The notes: a model not told the origin generated them from the sequence alone. Numbered from the stretch's first letter, positions 4,602-31,024 are shown. The stretch is 35,211 nt of DNA from Erysipelothrix sp. (GCA_012511085.1 JAAZGU010000008.1:1-35211), one strand, 5' to 3'. A program made the numbers and translations.

Positions 4602-4630
4602 AAAAACTATCCTTTAGGTTAGGGTCTTTT
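4602..4630 (+). repeat. Degenerate copy (C) of a 29-bp hairpin element
   Basis: AAAAACTATCCTTTAGGTTAGGGTCTTTT matches the reverse complement of copy A (22586-22614) at 25/29 ungapped positions, and copy B (26348-26376) at 25/29. The stem complementarity is lost in this copy. Confidence 0.55.
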
Positions 4631-11061: not shown

Positions 11062-12981
11062 ATGCGAACCCGTCAAATTGAATTACTACATATTATGTTA
11101 AATAACTTAAGTGTTGATGTGGAGAAGATGCTTAATATTTATGAGATTTCAAAACGCACACTCTTTTATGATTTGGAAGAAATCAATTATGAAATTGGTG
11201 CCTTTGGGAAACTTAAAGTCATTCAAGATGAAGTGGTTGTCGATGGTAATTTGGATGCCATTAAAAAGCACTTATCGGATAATGTTTTAATCCCGTATTA
11301 TCAGGCGAAAGAACGGCAAGAGCGCATCTTACTCACGGTTTTAGAAAATAAAAAGTTAAGTTTGGATGATTATGTTGATCTTTTTAATGTCAGTAAGAGC
11401 ACCATTTTTTCCAACATTGAAACTTTACGCGCAGAATTAGCACCTTATGATATTCAATTGGAATATGAAAAGCAATACAAGCTTAAAGGTTCAGAGCGGA
11501 AAATCCGCGATATGTATTTACAGTTGCTGTCCTTAAAAACCTTTGATTATGAAAAGATAAGCAAGGCTGTGATTCAGTTTAATCAAGAACATCAACTGCA
11601 TCTTTCCGACTATTCAATGTATTACCTAAGCAGCTTCATTGAGTTTATACAAGCACGTTATTCACAACATGATGCAATTAGTGATAAGCTTGGTGCTTCT
11701 GATTATTATTTGATTGATGACATCAATTTGGATGTGCAACATTTGCTTCAAATTGATAATGTCTCAGAACAACGTTATTTAAAATCATACATCTTGAGTT
11801 TATCAACGATTACACATAAAGATGTGACAACGATTGTCAAACAATACGTGCATGAACTATTACATGAAGTGAAAGTTCGTTTAGCTCTTGATCTTGAGTG
11901 GAATCAAGCCCTCATTAGTAATCTGGAGAATCACTTGATGGCATCGTTTTATCGCATTCATTTCAATTTTGCGGCGCTTAATCCGACTTTGACGGACATC
12001 AAGGTCAAGTACTTCTATTTATTCCTCAACGTGAAGTCAATCATCCGTTCTTTAAACCATCAAAGTGTCTTTTACAAGATGCGGGATGAAGAAATAGGAT
12101 TTGTGGTAGCGTATTTGGGCGGTTACATTTATGAAAGTTTGTCACAAATCGGACAAAAGCAATACAAGGTAATCTTAATATGTCCCCAAGGACGTGCGGT
12201 TGCTCAACATTTAAAAGCCCAACTTGAAAACACGTTTCCTGAAATTAATATTATTGGTGCCTATTCCATCAATCAATTGGGATACATTATCAAAAACTAT
12301 GATTATATCATCACTACTTTGGAATTACCACATTATCAAAATGTCATCAAAGTGCAACCAATTTTATCAGAATATGACAAACAACAACTTGAGAATTTAT
12401 TTGGCTTGCATGCCAGTGAAAGTCTGTTGAGCAAGGTTATGACTGTTGTTGAGAATCATACCCTTATTAAAGATCGCGAATCTTTAATGAGCGCCTTAGA
12501 AAATGTGCTAGGGCACAAACATGAGTCAAGGAGGTATCAACCAATGTTACAAGAGTTAATAAAAGCAGAAAGGATTCAAGTTGTCGATTATGTTCCCGAT
12601 TGGGAACAAGCGATTGCTTTAGCGAGTCAACCGTTGCTTGATGCAAGCGTCATTGAACAAGCTTACATCGATGCGATGATTGCCGCAATCCATGAATTTG
12701 GTCCTTATATTGTCTTAGCGGATGAATTTGCACTTCCGCATGCATCCAATGCTGGTCATGTTAAGGAAGTCGCAATTGCGTTGCTGGTGCTTGAAGAGGC
12801 GGTTGATTTACTTGGTAAGCCCGTGAAAGTCTTTATGGTGTTGGCTACCATTGACAATCAAAGCCATTTAAAAGCTTTGGCATCCTTGACCAACATTCTT
12901 TCCGAGGATGAAAATCTTGAACTCATTAAAAAAGGTAACATTGATGAGATAGTAAGCCTATTCAAAGGAGGTAGTAAATGA
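11062..12981 (+). CDS. PRD-domain transcriptional regulator (BglG/MtlR/LicR-type) with EIIB-like and C-terminal EIIA(type 2) domains
   Basis: 639 aa with an N-terminal HTH region, a central PRD-like helical region, an EIIB-like segment (VILICPQGRAVAQHL) and a C-terminal EIIA-2-like domain containing FALPHAS. Its stop overlaps the EIIB start (ATGA). Confidence 0.8.
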   Translation: MRTRQIELLHIMLNNLSVDVEKMLNIYEISKRTLFYDLEEINYEIGAFGKLKVIQDEVVVDGNLDAIKKHLSDNVLIPYYQAKERQERILLTVLENKKLSLDDYVDLFNVSKSTIFSNIETLRAELAPYDIQLEYEKQYKLKGSERKIRDMYLQLLSLKTFDYEKISKAVIQFNQEHQLHLSDYSMYYLSSFIEFIQARYSQHDAISDKLGASDYYLIDDINLDVQHLLQIDNVSEQRYLKSYILSLSTITHKDVTTIVKQYVHELLHEVKVRLALDLEWNQALISNLENHLMASFYRIHFNFAALNPTLTDIKVKYFYLFLNVKSIIRSLNHQSVFYKMRDEEIGFVVAYLGGYIYESLSQIGQKQYKVILICPQGRAVAQHLKAQLENTFPEINIIGAYSINQLGYIIKNYDYIITTLELPHYQNVIKVQPILSEYDKQQLENLFGLHASESLLSKVMTVVENHTLIKDRESLMSALENVLGHKHESRRYQPMLQELIKAERIQVVDYVPDWEQAIALASQPLLDASVIEQAYIDAMIAAIHEFGPYIVLADEFALPHASNAGHVKEVAIALLVLEEAVDLLGKPVKVFMVLATIDNQSHLKALASLTNILSEDENLELIKKGNIDEIVSLFKGGSK

Positions 12982-13244
12982 AGATTCTAGCGGTATGTGG
13001 CTTTGGAGTTGGTTCTTCGCTCGTTTTAAGAATGACAATTGAGAAAGTTTGTCGTGAACTCGGCATTGAAGCGGATGTGGAAAACACAGATCTTAGCAGT
13101 GCTCAAGGTTCCGATTGTGATTTTGTCTTTACCAGTGAAGAACTAGCAACACAGTTGCGTTCTCGAATGAAATGTCCCGTCATTCCAATTCAAAAGTATA
13201 TGGATAAAGCTGAAGTAAAAGCGAAATTCCAAGAGCATTTATAG
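12978..13244 (+). CDS. PTS EIIB component, ascorbate (UlaB/SgaB) family
   Basis: MKILAVCGFGVGSSLVLRM contains the active-site Cys context of UlaB-type EIIB. The protein is 88 aa. Confidence 0.85.
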   Translation: MKILAVCGFGVGSSLVLRMTIEKVCRELGIEADVENTDLSSAQGSDCDFVFTSEELATQLRSRMKCPVIPIQKYMDKAEVKAKFQEHL

Positions 13245-16269: not shown

Positions 16270-16294
16270 AAAAAAGGCGAGGTTATCTCGCCTT
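16270..16294 (-). terminator. Terminator of the six-gene operon
   Basis: Read on the minus strand: AAGGCGAG, loop ATAAC, CTCGCCTT, then a T-run. It begins 9 nt after the TPM gene stop. Confidence 0.6.
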
Positions 16295-16302
16295 GACTTC
16301 TT

Positions 16303-17058
16303 TTAAAATTTGCCTTTTGAGGCAACCTTTTTAGGTTCGGGAGCATCTTTTTTCGCTTTTGGTTTTTTAGTGACTTTCTCATACAAGAAGAGATCGTGTT
16401 CTTTTTCCTTTTTCAAATTACTTTTAACCAAATAGTTTTTTGCACCTCGTTGTTTAACCACGGATTTCAAACGTGACTTGGTGCCACTTGCCATCAACAA
16501 TGCGATGATGCTACCGATGATGAGTGACGTGATTAAACGTTTTAGAGAAAAAATCTCTTTTGTTTTCTTTGGAAGGGTTGTCACTTTGCCTTTATTTTTG
16601 TAGGCAGCTTCAACTGAGCTTCCGTATTTTTTAAAAGCGTCACTGTAATTTTCTGCGCTTAAGAGCGGGACAATTTCAGCTTCAATGTCATTGATGATTG
16701 CTTTTGTAATGACATTGCTTGCGTAGCTATCCGTCACTAAGACCCAATCACGGCTATCCAACACAACAAGCAACAAGCTGCCTTCTTGATTTTGTGTTAA
16801 AGGCGCAAGGTAATCTTGTAACAGGGTGTCGGCATGCACTTTTACGTCTTCGCCATAGGTTGAATACACCAGCGCCGCATGCACGTTTGTTTTTTGGGCC
16901 TGGCTAATTTTTGTAAGATGGTCATTGATTTCTTGTTTTGCTTCTGTTGATAATATTTGCGCAAAATCATGCACGTAAGTGTCTGCATCTGCCAGTATTG
17001 GGGAAGTAAACAAGATCATTGCCATCAAGAACATTAATAATGTTATTATTTTTTTCAT
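16303..17058 (-). CDS. TPM-domain membrane protein (YdjH-like)
   Basis: Signal peptide MKKIITLLMFLMAMILFTSPILA, then a TPM-like start (YVHDFAQILSTEAKQEINDHL...), one TM helix (LITSLIIGSIIALLMA) and a Lys-rich tail. SD AGGAGG lies upstream. Confidence 0.7.
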   Translation of the reverse strand: MKKIITLLMFLMAMILFTSPILADADTYVHDFAQILSTEAKQEINDHLTKISQAQKTNVHAALVYSTYGEDVKVHADTLLQDYLAPLTQNQEGSLLLVVLDSRDWVLVTDSYASNVITKAIINDIEAEIVPLLSAENYSDAFKKYGSSVEAAYKNKGKVTTLPKKTKEIFSLKRLITSLIIGSIIALLMASGTKSRLKSVVKQRGAKNYLVKSNLKKEKEHDLFLYEKVTKKPKAKKDAPEPKKVASKGKF

Positions 17059-17068
17059 GGTTTACCTC

Positions 17069-18145
17069 CTAAAAGATGAAGTATGCAATCGCATACAAGA
17101 TAGCACTTACTACAAGTGCACGTTTGATAAAGTATTGCCAATACAAACCTTTATCCAGCGGCAAATCACCGACGAATTTACCAGTTTGACCATTCATGGC
17201 AAAGGTGTACTTATTATTTTGCCAGGTTGTGTTTAAAAACCAAACAGGGTAGAGCACGTACCGTGCTTTACCATCATGAAGATGCACGTGCCCACTTTTT
17301 TGATTGGTTTCATCGTAATCACGCAACGAGTCTTCAATTTCTTTTTCAATACTTTTTTTAATGCGTTCGTTGGCACGATTGACACTATCTGTTTTAGAAA
17401 CATCATATTTATCCGCAAGATAACCTGCTAAATAAGCCGTTTGAAACGGCGTTGCTTCCTTTAAGTCGAAGGGTTCAATCGCTTCCATGAGCGTATCATC
17501 AACCTTGGCCGAACCATCGACCGGGACCCCTTCAAATTTAAAGGTGCCATCACGGACAACAGAATAGAAACGGCGTTTGACATAATCAAAGTTGTTGTCA
17601 CTGTAATTTTCTTCCTTGATGCCTTCGTAGCGATAGGCGGCTTCTGAATCCGTGTCAAAAATCCAAAAGGGGACATACACACCTTTGATTTCATCAATAT
17701 GGTTTTTATCCGTAAACACTTTTGGTAGAAACTTTTTATCCTTAAGATGGTTCATCAAGTTAGCTTTTGCTTTTGTTTTATTAAGCTTAAAGGGGATGAT
17801 GAGTTCCGGTTTGATGCCGCGTTGCAATTGATCCATTAAAACGATGGGATTATCACAAAAAGGGCAGGATGTTGCGGTGGTGCTGGCTTCCACAAGCAAT
17901 TCACCGCCACAGGATTTACAACCATACATTTGTAATTCGTGGTCATGATCCAGCCACTCATCTTCAAGTGGCGTCTCCCAGTCCATCACATCGTGATCAT
18001 CACCTTTGAGCTGCTCATCATAAGCAAGCAAAGATGCAACTTCAAATTCACTGTCACAATAAGGACACTTCATGTTTTGTGACTGTGAGTCAAAACTAAT
18101 CCCACCCCCACAAGCAGGGCATTTATATTCTTGTAAGGTCGTCAT
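17069..18145 (-). CDS. Double zinc-ribbon protein with C-terminal TM helix (YdjG-like)
   Basis: Two CxxC-x(n)-CxxC units (CPACGG..CPYCDS and CKSCGG..CPFCDN) and a C-terminal helix ALVVSAILYAIAYFIF. ATG 18145 (MTTLQEYK) sits 5 nt behind AAGGAG. The listed start at 18160 is a TTG. Confidence 0.65.
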   Translation of the reverse strand: MTTLQEYKCPACGGGISFDSQSQNMKCPYCDSEFEVASLLAYDEQLKGDDHDVMDWETPLEDEWLDHDHELQMYGCKSCGGELLVEASTTATSCPFCDNPIVLMDQLQRGIKPELIIPFKLNKTKAKANLMNHLKDKKFLPKVFTDKNHIDEIKGVYVPFWIFDTDSEAAYRYEGIKEENYSDNNFDYVKRRFYSVVRDGTFKFEGVPVDGSAKVDDTLMEAIEPFDLKEATPFQTAYLAGYLADKYDVSKTDSVNRANERIKKSIEKEIEDSLRDYDETNQKSGHVHLHDGKARYVLYPVWFLNTTWQNNKYTFAMNGQTGKFVGDLPLDKGLYWQYFIKRALVVSAILYAIAYFIF

Positions 18146-18163
18146 AAAAACTCCTTTCAATGG

Positions 18164-19447
18164 TTATTCTTCTAAATTATTGCCACACTCGGGGCAGAAT
18201 TTGCCTGCTTTGCTACCAGCTGGTGCTTGCCATCCACATTTGGCACATTGCACGGGTTGCGGCTGTGGTTTACCGCAGTTGGAACAAAACTTGCCAGTGT
18301 TTTCAGTTTCACATTCACACACCCAGACATCGGCAGGTGTCGGTTGTGGTTTTCCACACTCTGAGCAAAACTTGCCAGTATTGGTGGCGCCACAACTGCA
18401 CACCCATCCTTGCGCTTGTGGTTCAGTGCCTTGGCCTTGAACTTGGCCCATCGCAAACAGATCTTGGGTGCGTGTGCCACCGGCAGCCTGTGCCATGCCC
18501 ATACCCATAAAGCCTGCTAATGCTCCGCCTTCGTTGCTTGCCGCAGCGCGCATGGCATCGGCTTGCGCACCGGTTAAGGTTGCGGCCGCCATGGTAGGAT
18601 CACGTAAAATCGCTGCACGTTGTGCTTGTTTAATGATTTCAGCGTCTTCCTCTGGCAGCGTAATTGGATTTAGACCGATGGAAACAATTTTTAAGCCTCG
18701 GATTTCACCCCATTTTTTTGTGAGCACTTCATTCATTTCAGCGGTTAATTGATCGGCATAACCAGGAAGTTCACTGGGACGCACACCCTGTTTTGAAATG
18801 TTTGCGAACGCTGGTTGGAGTGCAGAAACGAATTCAGTCTTTAATTGACCATCAATTTCTTCACGGTCATATTGGTTACTGACATTGCCCGCGATGTTGG
18901 TGTAAAACAAAATTGGATCTTCAATTTTGTAGGAATAGACACCGGAACAGCGTACGCCCACATCAATGTCAAGCCCAATGTTAGCGTCTACCACCCGAAA
19001 TGGAATCGGATTTGGGGTTCCAAACTTGTTATCTAATAATTCTTTGGTGTTAATGTAATAAACTCGCTGATCTTTACCGGGTTCGCCTCCGTAGGTGAAC
19101 CGTTTTCCGATGTTTTTAAAGGTATCTTTAATGCCTTGACCCAAGGGTCCTGTGAAGATGCTTGGCTCAATCGAAGTGTCGTAGGTAAACTCACCGGGTT
19201 CAGCGCATACATCGACAATTTCGCCTTGTTCGACGATGATCATGCATTGGCCATCCGCAACAACAATTCCTGAACCGTTGGAAATGACATTGTCAGAACC
19301 TTTGGTGTTGGATGAGCGCCGTCCAATACGTTTCTCGCCTTTAACCATCATGACTTCTTTTGGCATTGTTTCACAATAGAAAAATTCTTTCCATTGATCC
19401 GCTAAGACACCACCGGCTGAGCCGGCAATTGCTTTAATTAATCCCAT
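18164..19447 (-). CDS. SPFH/Band-7-like protein with C-terminal zinc ribbons (YdjI / 'virion core protein-like' type)
   Basis: N-terminus MGLIKAIAGSAGGVLADQWKEFFYC..GRRSSNTKGSDNVISNGSGIVV is typical of this SPFH subgroup. It is followed by an Ala/Gly/Met/Gln-rich linker and three CxxC..CxxC ribbons. SD AGGAGA lies upstream. Confidence 0.7.
   Translation of the reverse strand: MGLIKAIAGSAGGVLADQWKEFFYCETMPKEVMMVKGEKRIGRRSSNTKGSDNVISNGSGIVVADGQCMIIVEQGEIVDVCAEPGEFTYDTSIEPSIFTGPLGQGIKDTFKNIGKRFTYGGEPGKDQRVYYINTKELLDNKFGTPNPIPFRVVDANIGLDIDVGVRCSGVYSYKIEDPILFYTNIAGNVSNQYDREEIDGQLKTEFVSALQPAFANISKQGVRPSELPGYADQLTAEMNEVLTKKWGEIRGLKIVSIGLNPITLPEEDAEIIKQAQRAAILRDPTMAAATLTGAQADAMRAAASNEGGALAGFMGMGMAQAAGGTRTQDLFAMGQVQGQGTEPQAQGWVCSCGATNTGKFCSECGKPQPTPADVWVCECETENTGKFCSNCGKPQPQPVQCAKCGWQAPAGSKAGKFCPECGNNLEE
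18260..18421 (-). repeat. 81-bp tandem duplication encoding two near-identical Zn-ribbon units
   Basis: 18260-18340 and 18341-18421 align with an 81-nt offset, for example GGCTGTGGTTTACCGCAGTTGGAACAAAACTTGCCAGTG against GGTTGTGGTTTTCCACACTCTGAGCAAAACTTGCCAGTA. They encode WVCECETENTGKFCSNCGKPQP and WVCSCGATNTGKFCSECGKPQP. Confidence 0.75.
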
Positions 19448-19465
19448 ATCAATCTCTCCTTTATT

Positions 19466-20926
19466 TTAAATAATAATAATGCGTGGTTCGTGTGTAAATT
19501 TTAAACGATGGTGGGAAGTTAAGTATTCCACTAAGATATCTTGTGCCGATGTTGACAGAATCATTGGTTTTTGATTGGCCTGCACGGCTTCAAGCGGTAC
19601 GTTTAAAAATTCTTCAATGTTTAAGTAATGAAAGTTTTGTAAACCGATTGTGTAAAAATGGGTATCCAGGACATCATTGTCGTTGTAAGTCAGCGACTTG
19701 ATTTCTTTGTCCTCCTTGGAGTAGGTCAGTCTTAAACCCTCTGAAAGTTGATAATACTCGGTAATTCCTAAAAAGGCATCATCACGCAGCATGTGCATCA
19801 ACATGGTTTTAAGTTGTAGACCATTCACTTTCACCTTATGGATTTCATCATCATAAGGGAATATTTGAACTAAAGTTCCATACTCTACGATGGGGCCAAG
19901 TTTTTGGCCACGAATGCTGCCGGAACCTAAAAACATAATGTCTAAACCCAGACTGTTTCTAAAAATATCAGTAAACAGACTTCCTAAGGGTGTTTCCATA
20001 TTGCGTTGTGGGTGTTCCAATTGTTGGTTGAAACGTGTCAAGATGCGTTGATACTTACGATCGGTGATGTCTTTGTATTTGTTAATAACTTCTTCAAGTT
20101 GCATATCTCTTGAGGCTGTTTCATTATTAATGGGTTCAAAGGACCACGTGTAAGAATCAATGCAGTTGTCATCGGTATCGACAATGATGTCAAAACGACC
20201 GATGTTGTCGGTACCTTCACCGGCTTGGGCAATCACGATGTTGTTTTCAATGATTGGTTGTTCCATAAAAGTATGGGAGTGACCACCAATGATTAAATCA
20301 ACGCCCCATTCCGGTTTTAACAAGCGCGCAAGTTCAATGTCTTCCTCAATCCCGATGTGCGTCAGCAAGACGGTAAAGTCAATGTCAATGGCATTGTAGG
20401 CATTGCATATCTTACCGACTTCTTTAGCAGCTTCAGCCGTGTCGATAAATGTGCCAACCAAGCCTTCTGCTTTGGCTGCAGCGAGAATTTCATCCGTAAT
20501 AATACCGATGAACAAGATTTTCATATCATCCATTTCGATAATATGGTGGGGTTGAAACAAACGGGAACCGTTGGTTTTAATGTATAAATTCGCATTGATA
20601 ATTGGAAACTGTGCACATTTTTCAATAAAAAGTAAATGCGCAATTCCATAATCAAGCTCATGGTTACCGATGGTAACCACATCCGGGGAAAGCATGTTCA
20701 TGATTTCAATCGTTGAAATGCCTTTAAATTCAGAGTCAATGACCGAGCCTCGAAACATGTCGCCGGCAATGACATAAATGACGTTTTCTTCTTCTTCACG
20801 GACTTTACTAATGTATCCAGATAACATGGACACACCACCAACATCTATTTTCCCGATGCGCTCTTCCAAGAAGTCACCGTGCAAGTCGTTGTTGTGTAAA
20901 ATGGTTAGTTTCTTTGTGGTTTTCAT
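19466..20926 (-). CDS. Bifunctional metallophosphatase/5'-nucleotidase (UshA/CpdB fold) with no signal peptide
   Basis: Calcineurin-like motifs ILHNNDLHGDF, AGDMFRGS, GNHELDYG, LTHIG and GGHSH, plus a C-terminal 5'-nucleotidase-type domain. The N-terminus MKTTKKLTILHNND has no hydrophobic leader. Confidence 0.85.
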   Translation of the reverse strand: MKTTKKLTILHNNDLHGDFLEERIGKIDVGGVSMLSGYISKVREEEENVIYVIAGDMFRGSVIDSEFKGISTIEIMNMLSPDVVTIGNHELDYGIAHLLFIEKCAQFPIINANLYIKTNGSRLFQPHHIIEMDDMKILFIGIITDEILAAAKAEGLVGTFIDTAEAAKEVGKICNAYNAIDIDFTVLLTHIGIEEDIELARLLKPEWGVDLIIGGHSHTFMEQPIIENNIVIAQAGEGTDNIGRFDIIVDTDDNCIDSYTWSFEPINNETASRDMQLEEVINKYKDITDRKYQRILTRFNQQLEHPQRNMETPLGSLFTDIFRNSLGLDIMFLGSGSIRGQKLGPIVEYGTLVQIFPYDDEIHKVKVNGLQLKTMLMHMLRDDAFLGITEYYQLSEGLRLTYSKEDKEIKSLTYNDNDVLDTHFYTIGLQNFHYLNIEEFLNVPLEAVQANQKPMILSTSAQDILVEYLTSHHRLKFTHEPRIIII

Positions 20927-20949
20927 TGTGTCACCTCACTGAAAGGTAT

Positions 20950-21435
20950 TTACCAATCACTTTCTTTTTTTGGTTTTCTAACATCCATGACAATGCCTGG
21001 ATAATCCCAAATGAACCATTGGTCATCCTTTTGGCGTAGTTGGATGGCACGTTTTGAATCCGCACCCGCAGTGTGTAGGTAGAGGCGTAAATAGCCAGCT
21101 TCCACATCTTGGGGTCGTTGGTCTTCAAACAGTCTAAGTGTCAATGGCATATCGGGTTGATAGTCATTGTCTGGGGTCGCCCCTTCGAAGTAAACCAACG
21201 GTAAATAAGGTTTATCCATGACGCGGTCCCTTAAAAAATTAATATCGAAAGGGCTTAAAGGTTTCGGTCCTTTCAATAAATTAATGGCTTCCACCCCCGC
21301 ATCACAATCATGCACAAAGAGATTCAATGCGCATAAAAACAAAGTGCATGTGTTTTCTGGTTGTCGCAAATCAAATTGGGGCATGGCTTTAAACGCTTCG
21401 AGGTTTAAAGGCAAGCTTTCAATCACTACGTTCAT
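20950..21435 (-). CDS. Hypothetical 161-aa acidic cytoplasmic protein, family not recognised
   Basis: Clean ORF with SD AGGAGGA, lying 35 nt after the upstream gene and 23 nt before the downstream gene. I recognise no TM segment and no known motif. Confidence 0.6.
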   Translation of the reverse strand: MNVVIESLPLNLEAFKAMPQFDLRQPENTCTLFLCALNLFVHDCDAGVEAINLLKGPKPLSPFDINFLRDRVMDKPYLPLVYFEGATPDNDYQPDMPLTLRLFEDQRPQDVEAGYLRLYLHTAGADSKRAIQLRQKDDQWFIWDYPGIVMDVRKPKKESDW

Positions 21436-21470
21436 ATTTTCCTCCTTCTGGTATTAAAAAACGTATTAAT

Positions 21471-22463
21471 TCATGGTTGGATACGTGTTAGTGTGTATCG
21501 AATTCCTACCTCATCATTAAAGAGGGGATCGCCACCAACATGCCGCATAATCAGCGTATCAAAATTTAAAAATTGCCATACAAATTTTGAATAAGATTCA
21601 TAGGGCTGCTCATCATGCTGTTCAGTAAATTCAATGTAAAGCAAATAACTATCATGATCGATGGGTTCACGTTGCGTTTCTTTTACACTGAAAGCAAACG
21701 TGCCTTTGTAGAAAGTATCTGCCATGAGGTTGAAGTATTCGATGGGATGAAAATCATCGCTGCTTGAATGATCCAGACCATGGAAAGTAAGTCGCACCAA
21801 GTTTTCATTACCATTTGGCATTGTGTACGATGCTTCCCATTCACCTTTAAAGACGAAAATGTTAAACTTGAAATCTTCAAAATCATGGGTAACATATAAG
21901 GAAACATCTTGCACACCTTTTGCTGGCAAACTAAGTTTTGTGTCTTTGCCATCCAATATTGGTGACATGCTGACAGATTCATCATTGAAGCTAACCGTGA
22001 TGATGGATTCTGCGTGCAAATCAGACAAATTAGTTTTCAACAATGCGGCGGTTTTACCATCACCTTCATATTGAACATCATGGTTAACATCAGTAATGTT
22101 TACCTCGCTATCAAAATAACGTGGGATAACCAAAAACACTTCGTCACCATCCATGTAAACCTTTTCCACAACCTTGATTTCATTATGGAAGGCCATAAAG
22201 GTTGAGAACTCACCAGTTTCAATATAACGTGCGAAGTCCGTTTCATCGCTGTATCCTAAAAATGCAAGCGCGAACAAATCATCGTCACGCCACTCAATGC
22301 CACCCAATTCTTCATAAATGATGGGTGGCTCTTTTGGATGTTCATCAAGCGGAGGTTCAATGATGGTGACATTTTTCGATGGATCATCGGCAGGGGGTTG
22401 TTTTATTTTACAGCCACTTAAAATAAGCAATCCTAATAAAAGCAATAATCGTATATTTTTCAT
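21471..22463 (-). CDS. Hypothetical lipoprotein, about 330 aa, domains not recognised
   Basis: MKNIRLLLLLGLLILSGC is a signal peptide plus lipobox, followed by a Pro/Asp/Glu-rich linker. ATG 22463 lies 5 nt behind AAGGAG (22474-22469). The listed start at 22469 is a GTG. Confidence 0.7.
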   Translation of the reverse strand: MKNIRLLLLLGLLILSGCKIKQPPADDPSKNVTIIEPPLDEHPKEPPIIYEELGGIEWRDDDLFALAFLGYSDETDFARYIETGEFSTFMAFHNEIKVVEKVYMDGDEVFLVIPRYFDSEVNITDVNHDVQYEGDGKTAALLKTNLSDLHAESIITVSFNDESVSMSPILDGKDTKLSLPAKGVQDVSLYVTHDFEDFKFNIFVFKGEWEASYTMPNGNENLVRLTFHGLDHSSSDDFHPIEYFNLMADTFYKGTFAFSVKETQREPIDHDSYLLYIEFTEQHDEQPYESYSKFVWQFLNFDTLIMRHVGGDPLFNDEVGIRYTLTRIQP

Positions 22464-22585
22464 AAGCACTCCTTTATATTGTTGTAAACTTAAAGGAACG
22501 ACGAATCGTTATATAAAAAAACATATTTGTGAAAGATGTGTAGCTGCGCCATTAATTTATAAAATTATTATATCAAAATTATTTT

Positions 22586-22614
22586 AAAAGACCCTATCTA
22601 AAAGGATAGGTTTT
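22586..22614 (-). repeat. Copy A of the 29-bp hairpin element (orphan, in a divergent intergenic region)
   Basis: Plus strand AAAAGACCCTATCTAAAAGGATAGGTTTT. Its reverse complement AAAACCTATCCTTTTAGATAGGGTCTTTT matches copy B at 27/29 positions. It forms a 7-bp stem (CCTATCT/GGATAGG with one wobble). No gene ends next to it on either strand. Confidence 0.7.
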
Positions 22615-22751: not shown

Positions 22752-24446
22752 GTGATTAAAAGCAAGAAAAACACACTTTCTATTATTTTTATCGTTTGGG
22801 TTTTACTAACCTTTGCGAGTCTGATTCGATTGTATCGTTCAAGTTTCTACTTCGTTAACGAAACAATTTTTTTAATTAATTTAACAGTGTATTTGAGTTT
22901 ATTGCTTTGGTGGGCCTATACGATTCTCAAACGGACTGGTAATCATCAAACCCGTTACTATTTATTGGGAATTGTTGGTTTGATTGTTTTTTGGTTGTTT
23001 GTGCGTTCAGTTAAATATCAACCATTCAATGACATTGACCTTGTGGCTCGCCATTTATGGTATGCCTATTACATCCCTATGATTTTAATCCCAGTGCTCA
23101 GTTTTTATTTATCCCTGAATCTAGGACAACCTGAAAATTACACAATACCAAAAATATATTATTGGTTGTATGTGCCAGCGTTGGTGCTGATTGGGGCGGT
23201 CCTAAGCAACGATCTTCATCAACAAGCCTTTGCTTTTCAGGATAATTTTGTCAGCTGGAGCAACAAATATAGCTACCGTATCTTTTTCTACCTTACGATT
23301 ATATGGATTGTTGTGTTATCACTTGCATCGTTAAGAATTCTATTTAAAAAAAGTTTTCAAGCGCACACGCGTCGGAAACTTTGGGTGCCCTTGATTGTGA
23401 TTGTGGTGGGACTTGCCTACGTTATTTATTATGCGATTGATAACTCCAGAACCGGAGGCGGTTTTTATGAAGCCACGGTTGCTTATTCCGTTTTTGTGAT
23501 TGCCTTTTGGGAAAGTTGCATGCAGAGTGGGCTCTTACCGACAAATACAAAATACAAGAAGTTTTTTAATGCATCCAATTTGCAAATCATGCTGGTTGAC
23601 TACCAGGGGACAACGCATTATCAATCACAAAAGATGATGGATTTAAACACCTATCAAATCATGGAAGTGCTCCGTGAGCATGTGATTCCTGTTGATAAAA
23701 ACACGTTATTGAAAAGCAAGTCGATTCATGGCGGTCATGTGTTGTGGTTGGAAGATATTACGAAGCTGCAAACCATCATCGATCAACTGCAGCAGGTTCG
23801 TCTGCAATTGTCTAATGAAGTCGACTTGTTGCAACAAGAGGTTGAAACCAAGGCAAAGATTGTGCATTTGCAACATGAAAACTATTTATTGGATACAATT
23901 TTAGATCAAGTGGAACCTCATCTTGCGAAAATTAAATCACATCTTGATGAGTTGGAAACCGCAAAGCCACTTGTGAAACATCAACTTTTAATTAAAATTA
24001 ATATCTTGGGGGCTTACATTAAGCGCCGCAGTAATTTAAGCCTTGCTTATGAAAGCCAACAACAAGTCCACCTGCATGACATCACAAACAGTTTTAATGA
24101 ATCCTTATCGATGCTGGATTCCCTCGCTGTGGAAAGTGCGCTCTTGTTTCAAAAAGAGCTTGCCTTAACATTGAGACAGGCACTCTTGATGTATGATATG
24201 TTTCAAACAGTGCTGGAAACCTTGTATTTGGATTTATCAAAAGTTGTTGTTTCTTTATCACATCTCGACCATCAATTCATCTATGGCTTTCATTTGGAAA
24301 CGCATCATTCAATGAATCATGATTTGCGTTGGTATTTGTTTGAAAACAAACTAAGAAACACTTACCAAGATATCGTTATCGAACATGAAAGCGATCATGT
24401 GTTTCACATCAACTTCAAGTTTAAAGCGGGTCATGACGATGCATAA
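22752..24446 (+). CDS. Multi-TM (7-8 helices) sensor-like protein with a degenerate histidine-kinase core (pseudo-kinase)
   Basis: GTG start. The N-terminal ~270 aa are polytopic (HisKA_7TM-like look), followed by a PAS-like segment, a coiled coil and a DHp-like helix (..VHLQHENYLLDTILDQV..). The C-terminal domain is collinear with the CA domain of the next gene but has no N-box, DxGxG or GxGL motifs. Confidence 0.65.
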   Translation: MIKSKKNTLSIIFIVWVLLTFASLIRLYRSSFYFVNETIFLINLTVYLSLLLWWAYTILKRTGNHQTRYYLLGIVGLIVFWLFVRSVKYQPFNDIDLVARHLWYAYYIPMILIPVLSFYLSLNLGQPENYTIPKIYYWLYVPALVLIGAVLSNDLHQQAFAFQDNFVSWSNKYSYRIFFYLTIIWIVVLSLASLRILFKKSFQAHTRRKLWVPLIVIVVGLAYVIYYAIDNSRTGGGFYEATVAYSVFVIAFWESCMQSGLLPTNTKYKKFFNASNLQIMLVDYQGTTHYQSQKMMDLNTYQIMEVLREHVIPVDKNTLLKSKSIHGGHVLWLEDITKLQTIIDQLQQVRLQLSNEVDLLQQEVETKAKIVHLQHENYLLDTILDQVEPHLAKIKSHLDELETAKPLVKHQLLIKINILGAYIKRRSNLSLAYESQQQVHLHDITNSFNESLSMLDSLAVESALLFQKELALTLRQALLMYDMFQTVLETLYLDLSKVVVSLSHLDHQFIYGFHLETHHSMNHDLRWYLFENKLRNTYQDIVIEHESDHVFHINFKFKAGHDDA

Positions 24447-25713
24447 TATCTTTATTAATCCTGTGGTGCAGGCCCTGATTGGCACATGTTTGTTGTTTGG
24501 AGTTTTTGTGTTTTCAATTTTAATCATGATTCGTGGGTTACGTTTGGAACGATTTAAATTAAGCATGTTTGAAATCCTAGTGTTGGTACTGTTGATTCTT
24601 AATCTTCTACTAGTCATTGGCATGGATGCGCATTATCCGATGCATGCATTTTTTGAGATTTTAAGCAACGGTTATCTACAGATGATATTTATCGCATGCG
24701 TGTATGGGCTTTTGTTGTATTGGGTACTCATTGAGCGGCAGCTGGGGCATCAATCGCTTTCTGGTAATTCAGTTCGCGAAGCCATTGATAACTTGCCAGT
24801 CGCGATAGGTTTTGCGGATGAACAGGGGCTACCTATCTTAAGCAATCGCAAAATGCAAGCCATCTCGCAACAACTTACTAACCATCACTTTCGCAATGCC
24901 TTTGAATTTTGGGAGGGTAGTGTTGTGAATCACGAAACAAAGGTTCATAGTCAGGATCAAGTAGTCATTCAAAGTGATGATGTACATTGGCAAATCTCAA
25001 AACACAAGTACAAGATCAGTGATGATTATTTTATTCATGTCAACGGCATCAATGTTTCAAAAGTGTATGAACTGCACAATGAGTTGCAGCTTGAAAATGA
25101 GCGCTTAAATAATCAACAACAACGGCTCACAACGCTCCTACAAGATATTGAACAAATTAAAAAAGACGAGGAAACTTTAGCCTTAAAAATGCGGATTCAT
25201 AACGAGCTTGGCAAAGTTATTTTAGCGAGCAAACAATACCTGCATGCGCAATCACCGCATGATTTAAACACCATCATCCATTTTTGGAATCAAGTCATTG
25301 AGAGCATGGGTGTCTCTGGTAATTATTTGGATGGTAGCGTGTTTGAGATGTATCAACAAATTAAAGATGCTGCTCATATGATTGGTTGTGAAATCGAAAT
25401 AGTCGGGCAGCTACCCGTTGAAACGAACCACGGTTATTTGGTGATGATTGCGATCAAAGAAGCCATTATTAATGCCATGAAACATGCACGCGCTAATCGC
25501 GTTCATGTTGAAATCAATGCCATAGAAACAGGGTATGACATCATCATCAAAGACAATGGCACCTTCAATGGGCAGCCCTTGGTTGAAGGTGGCGGTTTAG
25601 CTTCTTTAAGGCAAAAAATCGAACAAGCCAACGGCAGCTTGCGGATTTTAGGCCACGAACAGGTGCAATTAAACATTCATTTACCTTATAATGAAGGCGA
25701 GGTGGTGTTATGA
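24433..25713 (+). CDS. Sensor histidine kinase (NarL-partner, HisKA_3-like)
   Basis: 3-4 TM helices, a PAS-like segment, a coiled coil, H-box MRIHNELGKVIL, N-box EAIINAMKHA, IIIKDNGTF and GGGLASLRQKIE. The start is uncertain (ATG 24385, 24433 or 24439). The later ones overlap the upstream stop by 8-14 nt and give a sensible N-terminus. Confidence 0.8.
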   Translation: MTMHNIFINPVVQALIGTCLLFGVFVFSILIMIRGLRLERFKLSMFEILVLVLLILNLLLVIGMDAHYPMHAFFEILSNGYLQMIFIACVYGLLLYWVLIERQLGHQSLSGNSVREAIDNLPVAIGFADEQGLPILSNRKMQAISQQLTNHHFRNAFEFWEGSVVNHETKVHSQDQVVIQSDDVHWQISKHKYKISDDYFIHVNGINVSKVYELHNELQLENERLNNQQQRLTTLLQDIEQIKKDEETLALKMRIHNELGKVILASKQYLHAQSPHDLNTIIHFWNQVIESMGVSGNYLDGSVFEMYQQIKDAAHMIGCEIEIVGQLPVETNHGYLVMIAIKEAIINAMKHARANRVHVEINAIETGYDIIIKDNGTFNGQPLVEGGGLASLRQKIEQANGSLRILGHEQVQLNIHLPYNEGEVVL

Positions 25714-26333
25714 CGCGTGTGTTAGTTGTTGATGATCAACGAACGGTTAGGCAATATTTAGAGACAATCATTGATGCCTCGCAACGCTATCATTTGGTGG
25801 CAGCGATTGAAAGTGCTTTTATGGCAGAAATGTATTGCGTTAACCACGATGTCGACTTAATTTTGATGGATGTGTACACTGCACATCGTGAAAGTGGTTT
25901 ACAAGCCGCTCAAGAAATTAAAGAAAAATACCCGCATGTCAAAATCATCATTATCACATCCTTACCTGAGCATAGCTTTATTAAAAAAGCACGTGAAATA
26001 GGATGTGAGAGTTTTTGGTACAAAGATACCAGCGATTTGAGTTTATTGGAAGTTATGGATCGTACCATGGCAAATGAGTCGGTGTATCCTTTGGAGACTC
26101 CGATTTTACAAATTGGTAATGCCCAAAGTGATGAATTCACCAAACGCGAGTTGGAAGTGCTCCGTCACTTGGTTGCGGGTTTAACGCAACAAGAGATAGG
26201 CGAGCAACTTTTCATTTCCCATTCAACGGTTAAATACCACATCAACAGCATTCTTTCAAAGAGTGGTTACCATAACACGGTGCGCCTTTTAATTGATGTG
26301 GCCGAACAAAAGTTTATTATTCCTGATTTTTAA
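25710..26333 (+). CDS. Response regulator, NarL/LuxR family
   Basis: Canonical receiver (VVDDQ, LILMDV, IIITS, FWYKD) plus a LuxR HTH (ELEVLRHLVAGLTQQEIGEQLFISHSTVKYHINSIL). ATGA overlap with the kinase stop. Confidence 0.9.
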   Translation: MTRVLVVDDQRTVRQYLETIIDASQRYHLVAAIESAFMAEMYCVNHDVDLILMDVYTAHRESGLQAAQEIKEKYPHVKIIIITSLPEHSFIKKAREIGCESFWYKDTSDLSLLEVMDRTMANESVYPLETPILQIGNAQSDEFTKRELEVLRHLVAGLTQQEIGEQLFISHSTVKYHINSILSKSGYHNTVRLLIDVAEQKFIIPDF

Positions 26334-26347
26334 AATCAAGTTTAAAT

Positions 26348-26377
26348 AAAACCTATCCTTTTGGATAGGGTTTTTTT
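26348..26377 (+). terminator. Terminator of the two-component operon, which is also copy B of the 29-bp hairpin element
   Basis: AAAA, CCTATCC (26352-26358), loop TTTT, GGATAGG (26363-26369), G, then TTTTTTT (26371-26377). Confidence 0.75.
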
Positions 26378-26447
26378 ATGTTTTTTTTGATAGACTAACT
26401 TTAGTGAGCAGTTATTTAACCCTAATTTGAAAGCGAGGTGTTAAACC

Positions 26448-26828
26448 TTGAAACAAGTCGTAGTAAGCATTCCAAATTCATTGCTTGCGGGGGGTCTTTG
26501 TTTGCATTTAAAAGATAAACATCAACTTAATGTTGTCACGCAACAGCGCCAATCAGAAATTCTGGCGACGTGTTTGGAAGTTAAAGCAGATATTCTGTTA
26601 GCGGAAGTGCGCGATTATCCGCCACTGACAATTATGGATTGGGTTAAGCATCATCAAGAAATTGTGAACCATTTACCGAACTGCAAGTTAGTCGTTATTG
26701 TCGATGAAAATAGTAGCCCGGAAGCTTCACTTGCGGTTAAGGAGGCAAAGAAAAAAGGACACCTGCATATGTTTTTCTTCAGTAGCGTGTCCGGTGAATA
26801 TTTAAGTGCTGTGCTTGAGAGTTTATAA
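26448..26828 (+). CDS. Stand-alone receiver-like protein with all phospho-chemistry residues substituted (pseudo-receiver)
   Basis: TTG start 7 nt behind GAGGTG (26435-26440). By-eye alignment to the neighbouring receiver gives VVVSIPN vs VVDDQ, DILLAEV vs DLILMDV (Asp to Glu), KLVVIVD vs KIIIITS, and MFFFSS vs FWYKD (Lys lost). It has an alternating beta-alpha pattern over 126 aa. Confidence 0.45.
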   Translation: MKQVVVSIPNSLLAGGLCLHLKDKHQLNVVTQQRQSEILATCLEVKADILLAEVRDYPPLTIMDWVKHHQEIVNHLPNCKLVVIVDENSSPEASLAVKEAKKKGHLHMFFFSSVSGEYLSAVLESL

Positions 26829-28404: not shown

Positions 28405-28613
28405 ATCTAAGATGCGATGAAAAGAAGTAGTAGTAAGTTTAAACCCTTCAGCGAGTCGATGGTTGGTGAAAATCGATGGGGGCAGCTTATGAACTCGTCT
28501 TGGAGCAAAGGATGATACCTTCGTGAATCTGCGTTAATGATATGAGGGCATAGCGATGGCTATGAACTAAGGTGGTACCGCGTGAATACGTCCTTAGAGT
28601 GGGCGTTTTTTTT
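28405..28613 (+). promoter_or_regulatory. T-box riboswitch leader (Leu-specific) with terminator
   Basis: Stem I elements are present: GCGATGAAAAG (GA motif), AGCGAG bulge and distal hairpin TCGAT-GGTTGGTGAAA-ATCGA. The T-box sequence AAGGTGGTACCGCG is at 28569-28582. The terminator is ACGTCC (28588-28593) paired with GGGCGT (28601-28606) plus a T8 run to 28613. Leu codons CTT (28486-28488, followed by A) and CTC (28494-28496) lie on the 3' side of stem I. Confidence 0.85.
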
Positions 28614-28630
28614 ATGATTAGGAGGATACG

Positions 28631-31024
28631 ATGGAATACAACCATAAGAAGATTGAAAAACAGTGGCAACAATATTGGGATGAAAACCAGTCATTCTATA
28701 CGAATGTTTTGGATTTTGAAAAAGAGAAACTTTATATTTTGGATATGTTTCCATATCCATCTGGCAATGGTCTGCATGTTGGGCATCCGCGTGGTTACAC
28801 AGCTACGGATGTGCTAGTGCGTAAAAAACGCATGGAAGGCTACAACGTGTTGCACCCCATGGGTTGGGATGCTTTTGGATTACCAGCCGAACAATTTGCG
28901 CTACAAACCGGCAACCCACCAGCCGCGTTTACTAAGCAAAACATTGAGACATTCAAACGGCAAATCAAATCATTGGGGCTTTCCTATGATTGGAGCAAAG
29001 AAATCTCAACAACTGATCCCGAATATATGAAGTGGACGCAATGGATTTTCTTACAGCTACACAAAAAAGGCTTGGCCTATGTTGAAAACATGCCTGTTAA
29101 CTGGTGTCCGGAATTAAAAACAGTGCTGGCTAATGAAGAAGTAATCAACGGCCGTTCTGAACGTGGCAATCACCCCGTGTATCGGATTTTGATGCGCCAA
29201 TGGGTATTGAGGATTACAGAATATGCGCAACGTCTCTTGGATGATTTGGAGCTTGTGGATTGGCCTTCATCCACAAAAGAGATGCAAATCAATTGGATAG
29301 GTCGTAGCGAAGGGGCCAACGTTATCTTTAAGATCGATGGTCATGATAAAGAGTTTACAGTTTTTACGACCCGCTCCGATACTCTTTTTGGAGCGACGTA
29401 TTGTGTGTTAGCACCTGAACATCCTTTTGTTGCGGACATTACAACCCCTGAGAACAAAGATGCGGTGGCAGCCTATTTGGAAGAAATTCAAACCAAATCG
29501 GACCTGCAACGCACAGAATTAAACAAAGATAAAACCGGTGTCTTTACTGGTGCTTACGCAATTAACCCGGTTAACAATAAAAAAGTACCCATCTACATTG
29601 CGGATTACGTGCTCATCAGTTATGGTACCGGTGCCATCATGGCGGTACCAGCCCATGATAGTCGTGATTATGAATTCGCAAAGAAATACAAGATCGACAT
29701 CACGCCTGTCATTGAAGGCATCGATCCCGAGCTTGGTTATTTTGAAGGGGACGGTCCCCACATCAATTCTGATTTTATCAACGGTTTATCAAATGACAAA
29801 GCGCAAGCAGTCATGAACCAATGGCTTGTTGACAATCAAAAAGGGGAGCCGAAAGTGACCTTTAAATTACGTGATTGGCTCTTTTCACGCCAACGCTATT
29901 GGGGTGAGCCGATTCCAATTATTTTTATGGAAGATGGTACGGAGCGGAGCGTCGCGCTTGAAAATTTACCGCTTGAATTACCAGTTACGGATAATTATCA
30001 TCCATCCGATAGTGGTGAATCACCACTGGCCCATCTTGATGACTGGTTGTATGTTGAAATTGATGGTGTCAAGGGCAAACGTGAAACCAACACCATGCCC
30101 CAATGGGCAGGCTCATGTTGGTATTACATGCGCTTTTTAGACCCTCATAACGACACTGAATTTGCCAGCAAGCAATTGCTTGATCATTGGTTGCCCGTTG
30201 ATTTATACGTTGGCGGGGCTGAACATGCCGTCTTGCATTTGCTTTATGCGCGTTTCTGGCATAAAGTCCTTTATGACTTAGGCTATGTTTCCACGAAAGA
30301 ACCTTTTATGAAACTGTTCCACCAAGGGATGATTTTAGGTGAAAACGGTGAAAAGATGAGTAAGAGTCGTGGAAATGTGCTGAATCCTGATGATTACGTG
30401 GAATCTCATGGTGCCGATACCTTGCGCGTGTATGAAATGTTTATGGGGCCGCTGGAAGCCTCCTTACCATGGAGTGACCAGGGCATGGATGGTGCACGCA
30501 AATGGCTTGACCGTGTGTATCGCTTGATTTTGAAAGAAGACAAGTTGGTTGCTACCAACAACCATCAACTTGATAAAGTCTACCATTACACGGTTAAAAA
30601 AGTGTCTCATGATATCGACACTTTGAATTTAAACACAGCGATTTCGCAAATGATGATTTTTGTCAATGAGGCTTACAAAGCCGACGAATTGTATGTTGAA
30701 TACGCCAAGGGCTTCATTAAGATGTTTTCGACCTTTGCGCCCCATTTAGGCGAAGCCTTGTGGCAACATTTTTCCAAGGAAAACATTACCTATCAGCCAT
30801 GGCCAACCTACGATGAAGCGATGTTGATTGATGAAGAAGTGGAAGTTGTAGTTCAGGTCAACGGTCGCTTGCGGGCGAAGTTGGTGGTTGATGCGGAAAT
30901 TGAAAAAGAAGCACTCATCGAGTTAGCGCAAAACAACGCGAACGTTAGCGTGCATTTGGAAAATAAAACGCTTGTCAAGACCATCGTTATTCCTAAAAAG
31001 ATAGTTAATTTCGTTGTAAAATAA
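28631..31024 (+). CDS. leuS: Leucine--tRNA ligase
   Basis: HVGH ([12 protein letters not shown]) and KMSKS motifs with the CP1 editing domain. 797 aa, SD GGAGGA upstream. Confidence 0.97.

Follow-up and report, generated by a model that had tools for sequence, protein, structure and literature searches.

An SPFH, zinc-ribbon and TPM gene trio joined to DUF6935, 5'-nucleotidase and lipoprotein genes in Erysipelothrix sp.: a candidate PspA-independent envelope module

What is understood of SPFH scaffolds and the YdjGHI (SamGHI) trio comes almost entirely by way of PspA in a single organism. Studies of Bacillus subtilis have described YdjI as soluble, with a Band-7 domain and a Zn finger at its C-terminus, YdjG as having two Zn ribbons and one transmembrane (TM) segment, and YdjH as membrane-bound, with a TPM domain and a tail of low complexity (PMC11237479; PMC8581546; PMC9239133). 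The soluble YdjI needs YdjG/H to form membrane foci, and it has been reported to link PspA to the membrane (PMC8581546). More recently, PspA-independent signalling roles have been reported for SamGHI, PspA being dispensable for SamGHI phenotypes (bioRxiv 10.64898/2026.02.06.704340). The present analysis concerns a 35,211-nucleotide stretch of DNA from Erysipelothrix sp. (GCA_012511085.1, JAAZGU010000008.1:1-35211), referred to here as the window. An open reading frame (ORF) scan of the window showed six minus-strand ORFs in the same direction at 22463..16303, named g1 to g6 (Table 1), of which the last three encode a trio of the YdjI, YdjG, and YdjH kinds and the first three a lipoprotein, a DUF6935 protein, and a 5'-nucleotidase. 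On balance, the locus is probably a sensor-controlled module for cell-envelope maintenance or stress, built on a PspA-independent scaffold of the SamGHI (YdjGHI) type.

In a Pfam profile search, g4 matched Band_7_1 (PF13421) with an E-value of 1.7e-22 and a score of 80.5 bits (cut-off, 24). The protein is free of hydrophobic or TM segments and bears three Zn-ribbons at its C-terminus (approximately residues 359-421); its homologues number >8000 at 60-90% identity, and its N-terminal MGLIKA is also the start of 110/120 homologues. The g5 protein has two N-terminal CxxC..CxxC ribbons (CxxC at residues 9, 27, 76, and 94), a cytosolic domain of ~230 residues, and one C-terminal TM anchor (339-357), and in every related locus examined its gene comes after the SPFH gene or occurs together with it. 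Profile matches of g5 were limited to weak ones with Zn-ribbon families, with an E-value of 0.004 for PF08271, the Pfam family that Popp et al. have assigned to YdjG (PMC9239133). A single-sequence AlphaFold2 (AF2) model of g5 had a predicted local distance difference test (pLDDT) score of 35 and was unusable for the question of a YpeB-related or NTF2-like central domain. The g6 protein matched TPM_phosphatase (PF04536) with an E-value of 2.4e-18 and 66.8 bits, with BA41 (5anp) as a solved relative, and hydrophobicity and sequence predict an N-terminal signal or TM segment, an external TPM domain, a second TM segment (175-193), and a cytosolic tail rich in Lys. As judged from these profiles and topology signals, g4, g5, and g6 match YdjI, YdjG, and YdjH in domain content and topology. 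An earlier description of this DNA, the sequence-only reading, had assigned the last three genes to such a trio, and the Band_7_1 and TPM profiles and the ribbon and TM layout of g5 agree with it.

The same reading had reported no pspA in the 35 kb, and this was borne out by a search with PspA_IM30 (PF04012), which gave no match in any window ORF of at least 110 aa. A phmmer search with E. coli PspA of the six-frame translation of the window and 100 related loci (~1.4 Mb) returned nothing below E 0.09, in a search that had no Firmicute positive control. Eight independent SPFH-centred contexts with precomputed Pfam annotation were also compared, namely L009, L013, L014, L015 (Eubacteriaceae), L018 (pig gut), L182 (Sedimentibacter), L183, and L184 (Eubacterium sp.). 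The gene order was I-G-H in 8/8, five were bare three-gene units, and none of the eight had a PspA Pfam match within 9-10 kb of the triad. The PspA-less, reordered arrangement had been presented as a peculiarity of this locus; it is instead the normal state in the sampled Clostridia and Erysipelotrichia. Orders of the G-H...I type are also seen among loci centred on DUF6935.

These results bear on the first alternative, in which the operon is a classical phage shock protein (PSP) module whose triad recruits a PspA/LiaH homologue from another locus to damaged membrane, with DUF6935, nucleotidase, and lipoprotein as merely co-regulated stress genes. VraR/LiaR-class regulators control the PspA-like LiaH in Bacillus, and the regulator encoded beside the operon (s3, below) is of this class. 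From experiments, YdjI is indeed known only for linking PspA to the membrane (PMC8581546), and Ravi et al. have proposed that abbreviated Band-7 operons may act with PspA homologues encoded elsewhere (PMC11237479). The alternative nevertheless has to contend with the negative PspA searches in the window, around the eight triads, and in the ~1.4 Mb, as well as with SamGHI phenotypes for which PspA is dispensable. It also leaves unexplained why DUF6935, nucleotidase, and lipoprotein stay linked to the triad through shuffling of the gene order, and we consider it unlikely, although it deserves to be kept in mind.

The linkage itself was followed from several sides. An alignment scan for DUF6935 with one genome per species gave matches in 111 species; 80 loci were kept and annotated by iterative profile search seeded with the window proteins. 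Any triad gene was present in 32 of the 80 loci, all of I, G, and H in 20, and I within 1.5 kb of DUF6935 in 19. A sensor set consisting of a seven-TM (7TM) protein, a histidine kinase (HK), and a response regulator (RR) was present in 23, lying upstream, downstream, or divergent, and triad or sensor set in 46. Where flanks of 8 kb or more were available in each direction (31 loci), triad or sensor set was found in 25; the chance of meeting a single-copy triad in a 20-kb locus of a ~3-Mb genome is <1%. A word search for DUF6935 yielded 37 relatives, some of them alone (L001, L003, and L006). The layouts in three of the SPFH-centred contexts were 7TM-HK-RR-small-DUF6935-I-G-H-Exo_endo_phos (L009), ..-HK-RR-small-DUF6935-5'-nucleotidase-I-G-H (L013), and 5'-nucleotidase-lipoprotein-DUF6935-I-G-H-7TM-HK-RR-small (L014).

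A metagenome scan for the nucleotidase gave 339 relatives, from which 80 loci were kept, a redundant set with many members from one human-gut taxon. Layouts centred on this gene included I-(DUF4428)-(lipoprotein)-G-H-(small membrane protein)-DUF6935-lipoprotein-lipoprotein-5'-nucleotidase, 5'-nucleotidase-I-(I)-G-H, and 5'-nucleotidase-DUF6935-I-G-H-H-lipoprotein, and among the loci with both flanks complete, just one had the nucleotidase alone. Overall, the same six families occur together in at least five gene orders, in metagenome-assembled genomes (MAGs) of the Erysipelotrichaceae, Clostridiaceae, Oscillospiraceae, and Lachnospiraceae types and in an abundant human-gut taxon. Co-occurrence in at least five shuffled orders argues for a functional linkage. 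The joining of nucleotidase, 161-aa protein, and lipoprotein to the triad, as earlier claimed, is thus found again in several unrelated lineages and in several orders, and the condition that had been named as refuting it, a complete lack of co-conservation, does not hold. The scaffold had been proposed to be coupled to nucleotide or phosphoester hydrolysis; the nucleotidase does recur near the triad, but it is optional, being present in 10 (adjacent in 8) of the 80 DUF6935 loci, and DUF6935 is the more constant companion. A literature search for ties of Band_7_1/COG4260 to DUF6935, 5'-nucleotidase, or lipoprotein partners gave nothing beyond the PSP papers.

Two further features of these neighbourhoods have been observed. 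One pair that recurs near the triad, with or without DUF6935, combines a lipoprotein of the SBP_bac_8 family with a membrane protein of ~520 aa whose C-terminus is a GerE/LuxR helix-turn-helix (HTH) (L015:3824-6857; clusters c7/c8, about 16-19 DUF6935 loci); it may be a second, one-component sensor of these loci. The neighbourhoods of DUF6935 are also unusually rich in diverse lipoproteins without a Pfam family (clusters c2, c10, c14, c20, and c21, and a HEAT lipoprotein), one family of ~480 aa occurring in 24 loci.

The g2 protein, earlier called an orphan, matches Pfam DUF6935 (PF22043) over its full length, with an E-value of 1e-46 and profile positions 2-158 of 158. Its AF2 model (pLDDT 93) has an alpha+beta fold with four helices packed on a four-stranded sheet, and a Foldseek search of PDB and BFVD for fold relatives gave no match at E<0.07. 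The best matches were weak (PBP5/PBP2a N-domain, IseA, YbjP, and MlaC), with TM scores of at most 0.44, and were not used. A relationship between DUF6935 and the cytosolic domain of g5, said to be NTF2-like, was also rejected, as hhalign of the local family alignments gave a probability of 0.8%. No papers on DUF6935 were found in the literature. The residues conserved throughout the family (LxGP, YFxGAxPxNxYxP, GADxxR, and W161) suggest a ligand pocket.

A profile search of 1.84 billion representatives found 1194 DUF6935 clusters at E<=1e-3, of which the best 150 were divided into classes by a simple N-terminal heuristic. Among these 150, 44 stand alone like g2, 47 have a signal peptide or lipobox, and 36 start with an MG[LI][FL]D-type motif (MGLFD/MSLFD) followed by a linker, a start also found in L127:5707-6246. 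The MGLFD-type start resembles the amphipathic N-terminus of PspA (MGIFSRF) and the MGLIKA of the SPFH protein. Neighbouring DUF4428 proteins begin with MGLFDKK. Several representatives carry three to six copies of the domain in tandem, within large proteins that are secreted or on the surface and that also have SLH, cell-wall-binding, Fn3, Big_2-like, or dockerin modules (P0159, P0161, P0165, P0172, P0175, and P0270). Since DUF6935 is found in cytosolic, lipoprotein, and surface-repeat forms, the domain is used on both sides of the membrane. One representative (P0206) fuses a DUF4428-Zn-ribbon to DUF6935, and genes for DUF4428-Zn-ribbon proteins stand beside the SPFH gene in 14 loci (cluster c9: L060, L078, and L127:1199-2065). 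The fusion is a possible Rosetta-stone link.

The first gene had been described as encoding a lipoprotein without a family. The g1 protein does contain a lipobox (LSGC, residues 15-18, with Cys18) and has no match in Pfam or NCBIfam. A word search returned only one homologue, of 97% identity; the iterative profile search placed g1-like lipoproteins in 17 of the 80 DUF6935 loci, and they occur in the nucleotidase-centred loci as well. The g3 protein matched Metallophos (E 2.2e-10) and 5_nucleotid_C (E 1.4e-15) in Pfam, with NCBIfam matches too, and its best solved relative is 3ivd, a putative nucleotidase of E. coli (E 1.7e-33). Its motifs DLHGD, GDMF, GNHE, THIG, and GGHSH are intact and invariant across orthologues, which form a tight group (57-87% identity) beside DUF6935 and SPFH genes. 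The catalytic DxH motif begins at residue 14 and the N-terminus is not hydrophobic; because motif I starts so early, a signal peptide is absent and the enzyme should be cytosolic, in agreement with its earlier description as signal-less. The L009 locus is without a 5'-nucleotidase, and there a gene for an Exo_endo_phos (EEP) phosphoesterase (12276-13103) follows the TPM gene. This enzyme may be an alternative phosphoesterase partner.

The operon had been regarded as self-contained at 16303-22463. The co-conserved sensor cluster, genes s1 to s4, extends the system to 22752-26828. A homologue of s1 in L009 (32% identity) carries Pfam HisKA_7TM. The core of s2, comprising the dimerization and histidine phosphotransfer (DHp) and ATPase domains, aligns with DesK (E 2.7e-10); its true start is likely 24433, as called for this gene on the near-identical contig L005. 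The closest solved relatives of s3 are VraR and LiaR (VraR, E 1.3e-17). The s4 family travels with the sensor set and sometimes stands directly 5' of DUF6935. No LiaF/Toastrack or LiaI domain was detected in the window proteins, and family cut-offs were not reached for LiaS (17 bits against 450) or MadR (89 against 300).

The operon and the sensor cluster share a cis element. In the spacer between g1 and s1, the palindrome CCTATCC-TTTT-AGATAGG (22610..22593) is followed 20 nt further on by TATAAT, which is preceded by TG (TGATATAAT, 22575..22567) as in an extended -10 element; the centre of the palindrome lies near -41.5. The copy before s4, CCTATCC-TTTT-GGATAGG (26352-26369), is followed after 21 nt by TAGACT, likewise preceded by TG in an extended -10 (TGATAGACT). 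These are the two perfect window copies of CCTATC-N6-GATAGG, and 0.44 matches with up to 2 mismatches would be expected in the window by chance. The closest genome is that of an uncultured Erysipelothrix MAG (L021), which is 86%-related. Its spacer has diverged except in the block of palindrome and -10, and an equivalent element also precedes its s4. The near-identical palindrome AAAACCTATCC-N4-GGATAGGGT, with an extended -10 about 15 nt further on, stands before the operon and before s4, the L021 copies being at ~8850 and 3873-3890. Lachnospiraceae-type loci with the sensor set divergent from DUF6935 have, ahead of DUF6935, AAAACCTAACC-AAAA-GGCGGGGGT equally far from TGATAAAAT. No hairpin can be formed by this box, which speaks for a site bound by protein and against a terminator. 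The palindrome may be an operator for the adjacent s3 regulator. A degenerate third copy (4606-4623) lies ~300 nt 5' of an MsbA-like ABC exporter gene at 4918-6819.

The anatomy of the operon was recomputed and agreed with that given earlier. From g1 to g6 the genes are separated by 35, 23, 18, 18, and 10 nt, and each of the six starts has a Shine-Dalgarno (SD) sequence of the GGAG/GAGG type 5-9 nt upstream. The SD positions decided two starts: for g1, ATG 22463 was chosen, as GTG 22469 falls within the SD, and for g5, ATG 18145, as TTG 18160 lies 5' of the SD. A pattern scan detected no terminator-like signal in the intergenic gaps; the few weak matches are all intragenic (e.g., 17450..17436), and the claim of a single terminator after the last gene stands. 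An Rfam search of the 288-nt spacer upstream of the operon found no riboswitch or leader.

Table 1. Features of the operon and of the adjacent sensor cluster in the window.
Feature	Position	Strand	Description
g1	22463..21471	-	330-aa lipoprotein; no Pfam/NCBIfam family; fast-evolving
g2	21435..20950	-	161-aa cytosolic DUF6935 (PF22043) protein
g3	20926..19466	-	486-aa signal-less metallophosphatase of the 5'-nucleotidase/UshA family
g4	19447..18164	-	427-aa soluble SPFH protein, Band_7_1, YdjI/SamI type
g5	18145..17069	-	358-aa YdjG/SamG-like protein
g6	17058..16303	-	251-aa YdjH/SamH-like TPM protein
Intrinsic terminator	16274..16294	-	3' of g6; hairpin of 8-9 pairs, then TTTTTT; dG -14.8 kcal/mol
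Possible internal sigma-70-like promoter	19470..19498	-	TTTACA-17-TATTAT, 10/12; consensus match only
Putative operon promoter	22567..22610	-	Palindrome and extended -10; no -35 hexamer
s1	22752..24446	+	564-aa polytopic membrane protein, divergent from the operon
s2	24385..25713	+	Histidine kinase, DesK/LiaS (HisKA_3) class, 3 N-terminal TM segments
s3	25710..26333	+	NarL/LuxR-type regulator, Response_reg and GerE
Second palindrome copy	26352..26396	+	Between s3 and s4
s4	26448..26828	+	126-aa protein without a family; in 22 loci

The pattern scan also detected a promoter-like match within the 3' end of g3, just 5' of g4, which makes a separate transcript start for g4-g6 possible. Together with the many triads that stand alone and the genomes in which DUF6935 occurs by itself, this match would fit an operon of convenience, in which an ancestral I-G-H unit with its own promoter came to lie downstream of functionally uncoupled genes. 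However, recurrence of the same families in at least five orders across lineages is a classic signature of functional linkage, and DUF6935 is found fused to DUF4428, whose genes adjoin the SPFH gene. An operon of convenience is therefore, in our estimate, quite improbable.

The envelope-module reading builds on the operon anatomy, the domain identities and topology signals, the conserved neighbourhood, and the shared cis element. By analogy with B. subtilis, g5 and g6 would recruit the soluble g4 to the inner membrane face, and an oligomeric platform would form there. The products of g2, g3, and g1, the last an external lipoprotein, would be co-expressed with this platform as lineage-specific clients. 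The DUF6935 protein g2 is probably a cytosolic ligand-binding module; lipoproteins, surface repeats, and proteins with an N-terminal amphipathic helix are also among its relatives. The scaffold could then gather DUF6935 and the phosphoesterase g3 at the membrane, where they may act on a phosphate-containing envelope precursor or on a nucleotide signal. The 7TM protein, the HisKA_3 kinase, and the VraR-LiaR-like regulator would turn the operon on through the palindrome near -41.5 of the extended -10 promoter. Complex formation, the pairing of regulator and operator, the substrate, and the triggering stress are steps that we infer for such a module.

In a more specific proposal, DUF6935 stands in for PspA and is itself the client or effector of the SPFH scaffold. 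The domain would bind a ligand close to the membrane, would serve on either membrane face, and would often be equipped with a PspA-like amphipathic MGLFD helix. Platforms of the SamGHI type would recruit it, and with the cytosolic 5'-nucleotidase it would sense or process a phosphate-linked envelope precursor or nucleotide signal under a VraSR/LiaSR-like sensor. This proposal is speculative and rather unlikely to hold in full; if true, it would define a new and widespread envelope-homeostasis pathway of Firmicutes.

Several points weigh against the envelope-module reading as a whole. The ties of DUF6935, nucleotidase, and lipoprotein to the SPFH protein are so far those of gene neighbourhood, and the homology of g5 to B. 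subtilis YdjG is argued from architecture and position and not from direct sequence comparison. Independence from PspA holds for the locus, and a PspA gene elsewhere in the genome is possible. Most triads sampled from the SPFH side are without any extra gene, which indicates that the partners are accessory and not obligatory, and in 6 of the 31 DUF6935 loci with long flanks, both triad and sensor set are missing from the surroundings. The palindrome copy that follows s3 also resembles an ordinary terminator and may be that of s1-s3.

A role in conflict or defence had been considered earlier; in such a system, an SPFH scaffold would control a nucleotide-degrading effector. The nucleotidase might, in principle, exhaust the nucleotide pool or break down signalling nucleotides, and the literature links PspA to regulation of the cyclic-oligonucleotide-based anti-phage signalling system (CBASS). 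However, comparison with 5027 PADLOC models gave no match for any component other than generic HTH or receiver similarity, mobile-element genes are absent, and the flanks of the operon are housekeeping genes: phosphotransferase system (PTS), aldolase, LeuRS with its T-box, RNase J, and deformylase. Unlike components of typical defence islands, the SPFH protein is highly conserved (60-90% across families) and present as a single copy with a vertical-looking distribution. The idea of an anti-phage system accordingly finds very little room and has been dropped. The T-box is the sole Rfam match in the window, an ordinary leader at 28408-28598 (+; 130 bits) located 5' of the leucyl-tRNA synthetase gene (28631-31024). 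The GC content rises to 0.48 at 18001-19000, compared with ~0.40 elsewhere. The rise falls where the Gly/Ala/Cys-rich linker and the Zn-ribbon tail of g4 are encoded, and it is no sign of foreign DNA.

The trio is normally without PspA in Clostridia and Erysipelotrichia, and its recurring partners are candidates for what the scaffold organises in the absence of PspA. The locus offers a first functional context for DUF6935, a natural PspA-free system, and a testable pair of regulator and operator. The module spans many gut and soil Firmicutes, and it overturns nothing. Among described systems, pspA-ydjGHI (pspA-samGHI) of B. subtilis has the same three kinds of protein, the same tight linkage, and an envelope-stress context. 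The window locus differs from it in being without pspA, in the order I-G-H instead of G-H-I, in the three ribbons of its SPFH protein, and in its partners DUF6935, cytosolic 5'-nucleotidase, and lipoprotein; its control is probably exerted by a two-component system, whereas that of the B. subtilis operon is by sigma-W. LiaFSR-LiaIH and VraTSR likewise place a HisKA_3 kinase, a NarL-type regulator, and an accessory membrane protein beside a membrane-protective operon. In the window, however, the accessory protein is 7TM and HisKA_7TM-like, LiaF/Toastrack and LiaI were not detected, and the effector operon encodes an SPFH scaffold and not a PspA homologue. The SPFH-NfeD/flotillin operons (FloA/FloT, YqiK/YuaF) also combine an SPFH scaffold with dedicated membrane partners, but the window protein is of the Band_7_1 type with no TM segment or hairpin, and its partners are Zn-ribbon and TPM proteins and not NfeD. 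The 5'-nucleotidases UshA, CD73, and 3ivd share with g3 the Metallophos and 5_nucleotid_C domains and all metal-binding motifs; g3 differs in having no signal peptide, in being cytosolic, and in belonging to a tight orthologous group near DUF6935 and SPFH genes. What is new in comparison with all of these is the conserved partner set of the trio, consisting of DUF6935, 5'-nucleotidase, and lipoproteins, together with a probable dedicated two-component regulator.

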